Assembly: GCA_963661155.1 (NCBI GenBank)
Contig: CAVLAW010000001.1
Span: 1-60,960 of the forward strand
DNA length: 60,960 bases
From: Tidjanibacter massiliensis
Lineage (GTDB): Bacteria > Bacillota > Clostridia > Lachnospirales > Lachnospiraceae
Direction of reading: 5' to 3'
This document shows, one piece after another, positions 5,291 to 51,458 of this stretch. The notes below the pieces were generated by a model that saw only the letters and a list, made by a program, of their open reading frames with translations, was not told where the DNA came from and ran no database searches. Made by a program: the position numbers and the translations under genes. Position 1 is the first letter of the stretch. The number at the start of each line of letters is the position of its first letter.

Positions 5291-5306
5291 ATTGACAAAC
5301 TATTAG

Positions 5307-5345
5307 AAAAGGCGTGAACCTGCGAAACGATTCACGCCTTTTCTC
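5307..5345. terminator. bidirectional terminator between convergent MATE genes
   Basis: AAAAGGCGTGAA...TTCACGCCTTTT. Confidence 0.8.
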
Positions 5346-5346
5346 T

Positions 5347-6714
5347 CTATCTTAAAACATCCACTTTATTTTTTCTGATCTTTTTTAAAAAGAAATATCC
5401 CACCAGACACGAAATTACTTCTGTGATCGGAAATGCCCACCAGATCAGCGAAACTCCCATCTGTCCGTTTCTGACAAAGACAGAAAAGATTCCGGCCATC
5501 GGCAGGATCAGGACAAGCTGTCTTAAAAGAGAAATTACCAGCGATTCCATACCGCCGTCGAGTGCCTGGAAAATTCCCTGATAAGCCACATTGATTCCTG
5601 CAAACAGAAAACTGATGGAGATGATCCGCATTGCGCTGATGAAATACTCTCTGGACTGGCCTGCATTAAACAGCGTTGCAAACGCACCTGGGAAAAACTC
5701 GGTAACCGCAATGCCCAGCACCATCAGGGCAATCGTATAGATCAGACCATATCGGATGCCATCCTGAATTCTCTTTTTGCTCCGCATGCCATAGGAAAAT
5801 GCAAGAATCGGCGTGATCGCATCGCGGAGTCCGAACGCAAGAAACAGGACAAACTGCTGTACCTTGTAAAACAGACCATAGGCCGTCTGTGCAGATGGAC
5901 TGAATTTCAGAATCAGGTTCATGGCATACACCATAATCGACATCAGCGCCTGCGAGATAATGGCTGGAAGTCCAATCGCATAAATCTTTTTTATGATATC
6001 TTTATCCGGCTTCATGTATTTCATGCCATGTTCAAATTCTTTATTCAGTCTCAACTGAAAGATCAAAAGAAGCGCGGCCGATGCGACCTGTCCAATGACG
6101 GTTGCATACGCGGCACCTCTGACTCCCATTTCCGGAACGGGACCAAGACCATAGATCATGACCGGGTCGAGAACGATATTGACCACGGCTCCGACTACCT
6201 GCCCGATGGTAGAATACAAAGATCGTCCTGTCGCCTGCAGCAGTTTTTCAAACAGCGAGAAGAAAATCATTCCAAACGAAATCACGCAGCAAATCCGCAG
6301 ATAACTCGTTCCCATTGCAAGGACTTCTGCATCTGCTGTCTGAGATGCGATATACGCTTTTACTCCAAAAATACCGAACAGCAGACATACGCCATAAATC
6401 ACTGCGCCCAGAAACAGACTGTTTCCTGTGGCTTTTGCAGCCTCCTTTCGGTTTCCCTCTCCCAGCAGTCTCGCAAGAAGTGCATTCGTTCCCACACCCG
6501 TTCCGATTCCCACCGCAACCATCAGCATCTGAACCGGGAATACCAGTGTCAGTGCATTTAATGCGGCTTCGCTGCCGGTTTTCATATTTCCGACGAAAGC
6601 GCTGTCGACAATGTTGTAAACCGCCTGCAGTGCCATCGACAGGATCATGGGGATGCCCATCTGAATCATCAACTGATTAACCGGCATGTCTTTCATCTTG
6701 TTTCTTTGTGCCAT
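5347..6714 (-). CDS. MATE family efflux transporter
   Basis: [21 protein letters not shown] and [10 protein letters not shown] motifs; RBS GAGGAGG. Confidence 0.95.
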
Positions 6715-6738
6715 TTTGTTTTTCCTCCTCTTTTTCGC

Positions 6739-6884
6739 AATAAAAAAGTGTGTACCCCTGCCGCGTCCGTCATCAGTTGGACTTACGCCGTCAGGCTACA
6801 CACTTTTTTATTACCCATATAAATTTTGAAACGAAAAAACGAGAAGCAAAACTGGATTTACGCTGGTCTGCTACTCGTTCTTCC
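6739..6884 (-). promoter_or_regulatory. structured 5' leader (tandem hairpin attenuator / candidate riboswitch) of the MATE gene
   Basis: Two stem-loops, each followed by a U-tract and each carrying GCGTAARTCCA. Confidence 0.65.
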
Positions 6885-6887
6885 CAT

Positions 6888-6916
6888 ATTATATTTTCTG
6901 ATTTTCCAAAAGTCAA
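6888..6916 (-). promoter_or_regulatory. sigma-A promoter of the MATE gene
   Basis: TTGACT-17 bp-TATAAT on the minus strand. Confidence 0.75.
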
Positions 6917-6987
6917 ACAAAATTTTTCCTGCTAAAGCTCTTTTCCATTTTTTAATATAATATTCCCCATAATGGGAGGATGATTTC

Positions 6988-7509
6988 ATGGAATTGGATG
7001 TCTTAGGATTATTATCAGCCTGCTCCTATGCGCTGGACTGTGTGGAGGCGGAACTCGTTCACGTCACGGGCAGGCATGCGAAGCGGGTCGCTTATATGAG
7101 TGTCTGCACGGCGGAACAGATGGGGATTCTTGGAAAGGAGCTGCAGGATCTCAGCTTTTCGCAAATCAAGGCACTGGCAGATTTCTTTGCGCGGATCGTC
7201 GATTATAAATCTCCATTTACCAGCACCCATTCCATCGGCGTTGCCGTTGATGTGGAAATGCTGGCACGGCATATGGGATTCGACGAAGAGACGGCTCAGA
7301 AAATGTACCTCGCCGGGGCGCTGCACGATATCGGGAAAGTCGCCATCGGAAACGAGATTCTCGAAAAACCCGGAAGACTGACCGAAAGCCGGCCTTACAA
7401 ACAGGGGATGCCGCATGAAAAGACGTATGGCCTCCTGCGCGATATGGCTGGAAAAGGGTGGATTGATGCGGTGATTGTTGAGGAGATTGATGCTTGTTTT
7501 GGGGCATAA
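6988..7509 (+). pseudogene. internally deleted tandem HD-GYP phosphodiesterase
   Basis: Start of HD domain 1 (HAKRVAY) is joined directly to domain 2 (KSPFTSTHS..LHDIGK..LEKPGRLT), which then jumps to the RPY tail. The HHE..DG.GYP segment is missing. Confidence 0.7.
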
Positions 7510-7572
7510 CTTGAAAAAAGGAGCGAACACATCAAGACTTAACTGATGGGTTCACTCCCTTTTCTTTATTTT

Positions 7573-8229
7573 CTATTCAGCTTTGTATTCCGTTCCGTCA
7601 ACTCTTGCCAGAAGCTTTCCAGTAAAATGCCGATTAAAGAAATGGATGACCGGTCCGAGGCCAAAGGCGGTTACCAGGGTTCCAATTCCAATCACGCCTC
7701 CGGCGAAATAGCAGATCAGTGCGCAGACGACATCATTCGACATTCTGTGCCAGAAGTATGGGATTTTCGGCCATTTGCGGGTCATGATCAGGGACAGGCT
7801 GTCGTATGGGGCGACGCCCTCGTTCGGCATCTGATACAGGGACAGTCCCAGACAGCAGATCAGGACACCGATGCATAATGCGAGCAGCCGCGCCGGCATA
7901 GCGGCAAGGGCAAGGCCCATAATATTCGTAAAGATGTTGTAGAAAAACGTACAGATATACGCCAGAAATACCGCATTCACAACCGTTCCCATTCCAAGAA
8001 ACATTCTTCCAAATAAGAGTTCCACGATCAGCAGAACAATATTCACCAGCAATTGAAAGTTGCCGTACGCCATACCAAGCGTCTCTGCAACTGCCATATT
8101 CATCCCGCTGAACGGATCCGTTCCCAGCCCCGCAAGCTTAAAAATCGCAATCCCCATACCCGCAAGAATATTTCCGATACACATAATCAGAACGTGTTTC
8201 CAGTTAATGTTTTTCAAATACTCCCCCAT
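7573..8229 (-). CDS. YczE/YyaS/YitT family membrane protein
   Basis: LGTDPF, GVAPYD and GIGTL..AFGLGP motifs. Confidence 0.85.
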   Translation of the reverse strand: MGEYLKNINWKHVLIMCIGNILAGMGIAIFKLAGLGTDPFSGMNMAVAETLGMAYGNFQLLVNIVLLIVELLFGRMFLGMGTVVNAVFLAYICTFFYNIFTNIMGLALAAMPARLLALCIGVLICCLGLSLYQMPNEGVAPYDSLSLIMTRKWPKIPYFWHRMSNDVVCALICYFAGGVIGIGTLVTAFGLGPVIHFFNRHFTGKLLARVDGTEYKAE

Positions 8230-8453
8230 TTTATTTTCCCCCGTGTTTTCTTTTTATAAATTTATGACTGTCCTTGTGCCATTTTCTATTTTATCTTATC
8301 ACATGAAAAAGAATTTTTATATACTATTTCTTCTGAAAATCACCTTTTCCACAGTCACTTTTTTATAACCCAGTAATAGATTTGTGCGTACTTCTCCCCC
8401 GCTTATTTCTCCGGTATGATAAAAATAACGAAAACAAACGAATGGAGGATGCA

Positions 8454-9071
8454 ATGCACATGAAAAAGAATGTTAATCTGACAGAAGGAACGATCTGGAA
8501 GCAGTTGCTTCTGTTCTGTCTGCCGATTATGTTTGGTACGTTGTTTCAGCAATTATATAATGCCGTCGATGTAGTCGTCGTCGGGCAATTTGTCGGGGCG
8601 GATGCGATTGCCAGTGTGGGCGGATCGTCGAGAATGGTGATCAATCTGGTCGTGGGATTGTTTGTCGGTCTTTCTTCCGGTGTGACGATTATTGTTTCCC
8701 GGTTTTATGGAGCAAAGGATTCTGCAAAGGTTCAGAAAGGAATCCAGACCTCTCTTCTCCTGTCACTTCTCGGCGGTGTTCTGCTCACGGTGCCTGGCAT
8801 TCTTTTCACGCCGGCGATGCTCCGCCTGCTGAATACGCCGGAAGAAATCATGGCATCTTCCGCCGCTTATCTTCGCATTTATTTTGCCGGCATCCTTTTT
8901 GTATTTCTCTACAATGTCGGTTCCGCCATTCTCCGTGCACTGGGTGACAGCCGGCGGCCGCTGCGATGGTACTTTATTATTTTTACAAAACCAGGCGCGC
9001 CCTTTCCTGAGTCCTTCCACAAAAACAGCCCCTGCTCCCGGAAAATTCCAGAAGCAGGGGCTGACTGTTGA
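8454..9071 (+). pseudogene. 3'-truncated MATE transporter
   Basis: N-terminal MATE half (LYNAVD, ILRALGDSRRPL), then the frame runs into the rubrerythrin terminator sequence. Confidence 0.85.
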
Positions 9072-9674: not shown

Positions 9675-10008
9675 TGTTTTTACAACCTTCTCAAAATCCG
9701 ACGCCGGATGCTTGCACAGAAGACAGACAAAATCCTCCGGCAGCTCCTCGCCTACATATTCATATCCGCAGATCGTGCAGCGCCATACCGTCTGTCCGCA
9801 TTCTGACTCAGCACCGACACGGTAAATTCGCCTGTCCGCAGCACCATATCGTGCGTGTAATTCAGTTTATTCACACAGATACTCAGCTGATTCGGCTCCG
9901 ATGCTGCCCGAATGGCGGTGTTGATGATGCATCCGTTGTCCTTCTGTGCTTCCTTTGCCGTCAGCACAACAGACCGTAGCTCAGTTTGTACATCGCTTTT
10001 TTATCCAT
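9675..10008 (-). pseudogene. flavin reductase-rubredoxin remnant, originally in frame with rubrerythrin
   Basis: MDKKAMYKLSYGL start, then a frameshift, then [18 protein letters not shown] deletion leads to [17 protein letters not shown], which is in the rbr frame. Confidence 0.75.
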
Positions 10009-17117: not shown

Positions 17118-17295
17118 CTATGATACCAGTGTCAAAAGGTCGGAAATCCGACGCAAGCAAAGCTTGCAGGAGGATTTTTGAACTTGGGACACGACAAAAC
17201 ATGAGTAAGTAGCCATTTTTCAAAGAAAAATGAGCGGATTACGAATGTTTTGAAGATTGCGGGAGTACGAAGTACGGAGCAATCTGGTATCATAG
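17118..17295 (+). repeat. dispersed ~175 bp REP/MITE-like element, copy 1
   Basis: 12-bp terminal inverted repeat CTATGATACCAG/CTGGTATCATAG; near-identical reverse-complement copy at 43834-44005. Confidence 0.85.
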
Positions 17296-43833: not shown

Positions 43834-44005
43834 TGATACAAGATTGCTCCGTACTTCGTACTCCCGCAATCTTCAAAAACATTCGCAATCCGCTCATTTT
43901 TCTTCGAAAAATGGCTACTTACTCATGTTTTTGCGGATCCCAAGTTCTAAAATCCTCCTGCAAGCAAGCTTGCGTCAGATTTTCGACCTTTTGACCCTAG
44001 TATCA
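43834..44005 (-). repeat. dispersed REP/MITE-like element, copy 2
   Basis: Reverse complement of 17121-17292 with TGATAC...GTATCA ends; overlaps the murI stop codon. Confidence 0.85.
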
Positions 44006-51240: not shown

Positions 51241-51382
51241 ACACTGCCGCTTCCTTTGTTTCCAGATTCCCCCCGCCTGTGCCCCAAAAACAGCCTCTAC
51301 GTACCATTTCCCTGGATTCCGGAAATCAAAAAAACACGACAGGTCATAAAAATACCTATAGTGCTCCCATGGATGGTGTAAA

Positions 51383-51458
51383 GTGCAACTGGCTGCCATT
51401 TCACAGGCCCTATAGCTTTGCGTCACAGGCTTTCGCCTGCTTTGCTAAATATGTAATT
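51383..51458 (-). ncRNA. cyclic di-GMP-I (GEMM-I) riboswitch aptamer
   Basis: Minus strand reads AGCAAA-GCAGGC-GAAA-GCCTGT-GACGCAAAGC-TATAGGGCCTGT...ATGGCAGCCAGTTGC; terminator hairpin plus U-tract at about 51328-51364. Confidence 0.88.

Follow-up and report, generated by a model that had tools for sequence, protein, structure and literature searches.

The leader of a MATE exporter gene on the minus strand of the window (the whole 60,960-nt stretch of DNA analysed) carries two copies of a conserved ~30-nt unit that, judged from its sequence, is a real, widespread, covarying and uncatalogued cis-regulatory RNA, lies outside every family tested and appears to act in the manner of an ON riboswitch embedded in a terminator. 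Computation established its conservation and covariation, its strand asymmetry, the mutual exclusion of hairpin and terminator, and the gene context. An earlier note on this DNA had proposed an orphan riboswitch or an antiterminator-protein site, and this proposal gains support from a covarying alternative hairpin that the note had not seen.

Architecture of the MATE leader

The features of the leader are listed in Table 1. The promoter described earlier is present, is the sole promoter-like site within 6400-7600 and matches the consensus at 11 of 12 positions; since shuffled sequences yield 1.3 such sites, it has no significance by itself. The two hairpins with U-tracts fold as the earlier note described, with folding energies of -14.9 kcal/mol (z -3.7) for hairpin 1 and -42.6 kcal/mol (z -8.3) for hairpin 2, and the 16-bp outer stem of the latter (6797-6812/6739-6754) is perfect, 6 of its 16 pairs being A-tract against the U-tract itself. 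Both hairpins are terminator (OFF) folds. The inner stem CCTG/CAGG formerly read in hairpin 2 was rejected, as it belongs to the terminator fold and is variable among orthologs.

The 11-mer that had been placed in two stems is indeed repeated exactly, at 6853-6863 and 6778-6788, but in hairpin 1 it lies mostly in the loop, and the conserved unit is the ~30-nt element rather than the 11-mer. The significance of the 11-mer rests on conservation, because two matches in the window with one mismatch allowed are within chance expectation (49 of 100 shuffles). The downstream ORF is the MATE exporter it had been taken for, and the solved relatives of its protein are of the DinF type. Between unit 1 and unit 2, three pairs change while pairing is kept (A-U to G-C, C-G to U-A and U-A to U-G). 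In the window's genome (G000), only the two window copies scored in the covariance model search; a third match (E 0.39) looks like chance.

Table 1. Features of the leader and its gene. Both window copies of the unit belong to the training set of model R1, whose scores are given.
Feature	Position	Strand	Evidence or remark
MATE family exporter, 455 aa, predicted regulated gene	5347..6714	-	TIGR00797 and PF01554 above cut-off
Sigma-70-type promoter TTGACT-17-TATAAT	6888..6916	-	start site predicted at ~6881
Unit 1, candidate aptamer/antiterminator hairpin	6850..6879	-	conservation, covariation; model R1 42.9 bits
Pairs of unit 1	6879-6850, 6878-6851, 6877-6852, 6876-6854, 6874-6855, 6873-6857, 6871-6862, 6870-6863	-	
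Intrinsic terminator 1	6834..6882	-	U-tract 6839-6834; 3′ arm captures 5′ strand of unit 1
Unit 2, second hairpin copy	6775..6804	-	model R1 38.7 bits
Intrinsic terminator 2	6739..6812	-	U-tract 6747-6742; 3′ arm pairs with both strands of unit 2
Shine-Dalgarno (SD) site	6724..6730	-	sequence; outside terminators 1 and 2

Elsewhere in the window, a hairpin flanked by A/U tracts lies between two convergent MATE genes (5291-5346) and is a probable bidirectional terminator. An HD-domain ORF of 173 aa (6988-7509, plus strand) resembles a shortened form of a 394-aa homolog found at the same place in locus L002, and a MATE-like ORF (8382-9071, plus strand) matches just the first 150 of 396 profile positions and is probably truncated. 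Rfam matches in the window comprise two Clostridiales-1 RNAs and one c-di-GMP-I riboswitch, located at 17121-17292 (plus), 43834-44005 (minus) and 51381-51456 (minus).

Structure and covariation of the unit

The consensus of the unit is RNYGWGYRGC-loop-GCGUAARWCCRRNU (~30 nt); eight pairs are proposed, interrupted by three one-nucleotide bulges and an R/GUAA loop. With the 5′ strand numbered A0 N1 Y2 G3 W4 G5 Y6 R7 G8 C9 and the 3′ strand G1′ C2′ G3′ U4′ A5′ A6′ R7′ W8′ C9′ C10′ R11′ R12′ N13′ U14′, the pairs are 0-14′, 1-13′, 2-12′, 3-10′, 5-9′, 6-7′, 8-2′ and 9-1′, the bulges are R11′, W4 and W8′, R7 faces GUAA, and the free loop is mostly 4-9 nt. Column statistics exposed this structure as distinct from the terminator.

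A relaxed pattern gave 383 matches, which reduced to 239 distinct units with a downstream U-tract, and 223 of these fit the strict pattern; several of the 16 units thereby dropped are real variants. Pair 1-13′, neither base of which is constrained by the search pattern, was formed in 218 of the 223 units (AU 97, UA 50, GC 47, CG 9, GU/UG 15), and pairs 2-12′, 6-7′ and 0-14′ were formed in 222, 223 and 207 of them. In alignment A1, which retains 137 of the 140 rows selected (L445, L449 and L450, which are within the 223, were omitted as probable chance matches), 98.8% of cells pair compared to at most 52% in slid controls, and both-side changes number 101 compared to 29 in shuffles; two of the five shuffle measures, the number of covarying pairs and the pair types, were not above shuffles.

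On a tree of 143 downstream MATE proteins, position 1 changes 27-33 times and position 13′ changes 25-35 times, and 84-88% of the 1-13′ changes are shared, the highest value among 153 column pairs (median 40%). Pairs 2-12′ and 6-7′ are outside the top ten in this test. At four pairs, G-U occurs 34, 15, 25 and 62 times, and A-C occurs 2, 0, 1 and 0 times at the same pairs compared to 4, 23, 18 and 13 expected. This tolerance of G-U and not of A-C is an RNA signature on the strand of the unit.

Variants found by the covariance model have C9-G1′ replaced by U-A, A-U or U-G. The three invariant pairs are, by their invariance, unproven by covariation, and since several core positions are fixed by the search pattern, the invariance of those positions is partly circular. 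The proposed hairpin has a folding energy of +4 to +5 kcal/mol compared to about -21 for the terminators and is not the predicted lowest-energy fold, and RNAalifold recovers just two of the eight proposed pairs. A variant unit at L188:2845-2910, with U for the purine at position 7 and a U9-A1′ pair, lies ahead of the gene for a FecCD iron-chelate permease, and the locus additionally contains a CarD-like gene and a MATE gene under motif control; the specificity of this variant is possibly altered. The purine/two-adenine loop of the unit may resemble the ribosomal decoding site, and part of its core may resemble the PyrR binding loop. An assembled 16S gene is absent from G000.

Expression platform

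Terminator partners were assigned in 307 units that had been selected to keep two closing pairs and were therefore left out of the covariation counts. In 159 of them, the 3′ arm of the terminator pairs with the 5′ strand of the unit; in 67 it pairs with both strands, in 79 it pairs only with the 3′ strand, and 2 are unclear. The strand that a terminator does not use remains conserved, and the 5′ consensus is present in 69 of 72 leaders picked by the 3′ strand and the terminator alone (of the three exceptions, two are the same hairpins read on the opposite strand). The conserved unit is thus not the terminator. Because terminators capture either strand of the unit, in every architecture, the hairpin and the terminator are mutually exclusive.

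The distance from the end of the hairpin to the U-tract has a median of 12-18 nt. RNA polymerase holds a stretch of about this length, so the hairpin could just be completed at the termination site. Such a short decision window, together with the marginal energy of the hairpin, would also suit a ligand-free sensor, in which temperature, pH or elongation speed tips the balance between hairpin and terminator. However, near-invariant unpaired bases (GUAA and the bulges) in many families are unexpected for a purely thermodynamic switch, and the energy gap of ~25 kcal/mol is too large for one, leaving a sensor of this kind very improbable.

The first unit starts 8-11 nt past the -10 box in 142 of 223 cases (no promoter was found for 57). 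Tandem units occur in 52 of 143 MATE leaders, and a tandem leader is present on a plasmid of the cultured Eubacterium/Lachnospira eligens ATCC 27750. The nearly fixed distance of first copies from the -10 box could reflect binding of a transcription factor to a DNA operator immediately past the promoter, followed by ordinary terminators. This explanation conflicts with the compensatory changes and the G-U versus A-C asymmetry, which are RNA signatures, and with the second copies, which are distant from the promoter and have their own terminators; moreover, two terminators ahead of the gene would silence it unless they were conditional. We consider a DNA operator highly improbable.

Both TAA codons in the window copies are in frame with an upstream ATG, as expected for ribosome-mediated attenuation with a leader peptide ending at the TAA of the 11-mer. 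Across the 223 units, however, just 29 have an in-frame ATG at most 45 nt upstream, and 1 of these has an SD-like site; the loop length keeps no frame, and the first window ATG is upstream of the predicted start site. Attenuation through a leader peptide is hence already largely refuted, and we give it hardly any credence.

Distribution across genomes

The leaders of MATE relatives were collected from 105 other loci, of which 7 were excluded (1 as a duplicate and 6 because they were partial or had <150 nt upstream). The motif was present in 33 of 36 orthologs at ≥75% identity, twice in 24 of these, so the 11-mer that the earlier note took to be under selection is conserved in orthologous leaders. 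It was also present in 8 of 13 relatives at 45-75% identity and in 0 of 49 at <45%. The named orthologs are mostly Lachnospiraceae, a family to which the window therefore probably belongs as well.

In the pattern search, 90 of 301 family genomes had a match compared to 12 with a reversed-pattern match, some of the 90 being chance matches in coding DNA. An earlier pattern matched 28 of 301 genomes at the order level, and the searches at the class and phylum levels matched 20 of 301 and 9 of 251 genomes, with just two matches outside the class that looked real. At E ≤0.5, the covariance model detected the unit in 57 of 151 family genomes, a few of the weakest rows being doubtful. It also detected the unit in 4 of 151 phylum genomes, in each of which it lies near a promoter and is linked to a terminator. 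Pattern matches on viral contigs (86) were taken as chance; among those listed, none except L282 has the 5′ context or a terminator. In L045 and L054, a MATE gene (85-88% identity) with a tandem leader is found in bins labelled Bacteroidaceae and Prevotella, by transfer or mis-binning.

Downstream genes and candidate regulators

The genes downstream of 265 distinct units were counted at loci picked by the motif rather than by a MATE query. The first gene encodes a MATE protein in 201 of 265 units (120 in the clade of the window protein, 78 in a clade ~25% identical to it and 3 in a third clade). The others are CarD-like (11), a 79-aa orphan (9), DUF2798 (9), an ABC exporter (3), cytidylate-kinase-like (3) and MFS, Ogt and rubrerythrin (1 each), with 22 units having another gene or none and 4 having too little DNA. 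The other genes among the 22 include FecCD permeases (4 units, 3 near-identical) and singletons. The minority genes, among them the FecCD uptake permease, CarD-like genes and rubrerythrin, fail to indicate a single ligand.

The 79-aa protein, which has no Pfam family and whose single-sequence fold was uninformative (pLDDT 55), is encoded under its own motif copy in L111, L122, L227, L282, L395, L396, L435 and L443, and in some loci its gene is directly upstream of the MATE gene. The two DUF2798-like genes of G000 have leaders at G000:C50 ~9790-9990 (minus) and G000:C88 ~7560-7725 (plus), each with promoter-proximal terminators and with neither the ~30-nt motif nor an Rfam match; loci L453 and L454 belong to this observation. 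On G000:C50, a CarD-like gene lies just upstream of the DUF2798-like gene.

RAT elements of the BglG/SacY antiterminators are ~30-nt imperfect hairpins that are exclusive with a terminator and need a stabiliser. The unit could similarly be the binding site of an antiterminator protein, a ubiquitous or unfamiliar one included: it resembles RAT elements in size, bulged hairpin shape and terminator overlap, its positive folding energy means that the hairpin requires a stabiliser, and motif loci repeatedly contain CarD-like and 79-aa orphan genes. However, RAT systems control sugar PTS genes whereas the unit precedes exporters, and the CAT_RBD family was found in 0 of 5 motif-bearing genomes (four ≥96% complete), compared to 4 of 14 control genomes. 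A search for the 79-aa protein succeeded in 1 of 5 near-complete carriers and failed in G000 (84% complete), stand-alone CarD-like genes were found in 3 of 5 carriers and not in G406 (3 units) or G345 (2 units), and no conserved regulator gene adjoins the 232 motif loci. This absence of an adjacent conserved regulator and of the candidate proteins from several carriers, together with the failure of leader-peptide control, favours a protein-free switch; a protein-binding site is unlikely but retains some weight.

A second uncatalogued motif, GGYTRTGGCAGCTYYCC followed by an A-run and GWCTCC, was observed just before the SD site, 23-102 nt after the unit in L010, L347, L355, L387, L403, L410, L419, L437 and L496 and alone in L516. 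It matched 7 of 151 family genomes, with 0 control matches, and in 6 of these genomes it follows the ~30-nt unit; the pattern search did not find it in G000. Its CUCC could sequester the SD site, making it a candidate translational switch in a mixed tandem.

Proposed mechanism

The unit has the general attributes of a riboswitch, namely a 5′ UTR position, a conserved covarying structure, an exclusive expression platform and occurrence in several lineages. We consider that each unit is probably the aptamer of a terminator-embedded ON riboswitch of an uncatalogued class, a candidate for pseudo-cooperative action in tandem. The nascent RNA would fold into a ~30-nt irregular hairpin in which three closing pairs are followed by a zig-zag of three single bulges; the zig-zag would hold two invariant G-C pairs and a Y-R pair, after which a purine would face the invariant GUAA, with two more pairs and a free 4-9-nt loop beyond. 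Because the hairpin alone is unstable, the downstream arm would by default displace one or both of its strands, so that the terminator forms. Binding of a small ligand to the bulged core would keep the hairpin until polymerase passes the U-tract, allowing transcription to continue. Termination and read-through, as well as the existence and nature of the ligand, are what we infer from the computed pattern. The dominance of exporters among the genes, together with the ON logic, suggests that the ligand would most likely be a toxic small molecule or ion exported by the MATE protein. Two complete switches in series would reduce leak and steepen the response.

A wider reading, which we put forward tentatively as quite possible, is that the unit represents an undescribed riboswitch class whose aptamer, at ~30 nt, would be one of the smallest in nature, and by which about one third of Lachnospiraceae-type gut genera would sense an unrecognised toxic gut compound or ion and switch on several unrelated exporter families and a CarD-like transcription factor, the unit being deployed singly, in a same-class tandem or paired with the second uncatalogued translational element.

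Such an orphan switch offers a handle on the substrates exported by the many MATE paralogs and DUF2798 proteins in gut Clostridia, and on which chemical stress of the gut is so frequent that a dedicated RNA sensor exists for it. The biology of guanidine was itself discovered by way of an orphan switch. A 30-nt aptamer is also cheap to synthesise, probe and solve.

Comparison with known systems

A cmscan against Rfam 15 at the gathering score gave no family for the leader region or for sets of 20 and 15 loci, with sub-threshold hairpin-like matches only; the novelty that the earlier note had suggested thus holds with respect to Rfam. The literature search, which covered mainly the running text of the papers available to it, found no description of the ~30-nt motif, and an exact 12-mer search returned 4 unrelated papers. 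The print comparison also covered parts of PMC11109978, PMC8632094, PMC6429828, PMC9337991, PMC7798349 and bioRxiv 2023.10.02.560326.

In the covered parts of the sources, guanidine-IV (the mepA/GGAM-1 motif) and Gd4v each possess a P1 hairpin distinct from the terminator hairpin, the two being joined by loop-loop pairing; they occupy constructs of 81-105 nt and are associated with sugE/emrE, B3/B4, GNAT or transaminase genes (PMC7736828, bioRxiv 2020.10.21.349134, PMC9788692). As described there, they share with the unit a terminator-embedded position, predicted ON logic, frequent location upstream of MATE genes and occurrence in gut Firmicutes. Unlike these two-hairpin systems, the unit is one ~30-nt bulged hairpin at the 5′ end of the transcript; its start so close to the -10 box leaves no room for a P1 of the guanidine-IV type, and the covariation shows one nested hairpin. 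Judged by the papers' descriptions, the separate P1 and the loop-loop pairing are absent here, and it is by these descriptions rather than by Rfam that guanidine-IV and Gd4v were set apart. None of the sugE/emrE, B3/B4, GNAT or transaminase genes is among the first downstream genes of the 265 units (7 of which have no ORF or too short DNA). Analogy with these systems makes guanidine the first candidate ligand to consider, but as no sugE-type gene was seen, it seems improbable.

Terminator-embedded aptamers are predicted ON switches, and the HMP-PP riboswitch (thiS motif), as far as the covered text describes it, resembles the unit in the overlap of its aptamer with the terminator and in its ON logic (bioRxiv 2020.10.21.349134). 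It differs in controlling thiamin genes and in its fold, and the unit has no Rfam match. HMP2_7528, in the covered part of its source, is a 59-nt structure that an automatic prediction placed upstream of MATE genes in Clostridia of the gut (PMC8040213). Compared by its description and not by its sequence, it is similar in taxa, in MATE context and in length to a unit plus terminator, and may be an automatic, uncharacterised call of the ~30-nt element. Same-ligand tandem riboswitches, such as tandem TPP, are described as pseudo-cooperative in the covered part of PMC9481103, and like tandem TPP in that account, the window leader combines two entire candidate switches, both equipped with a terminator.
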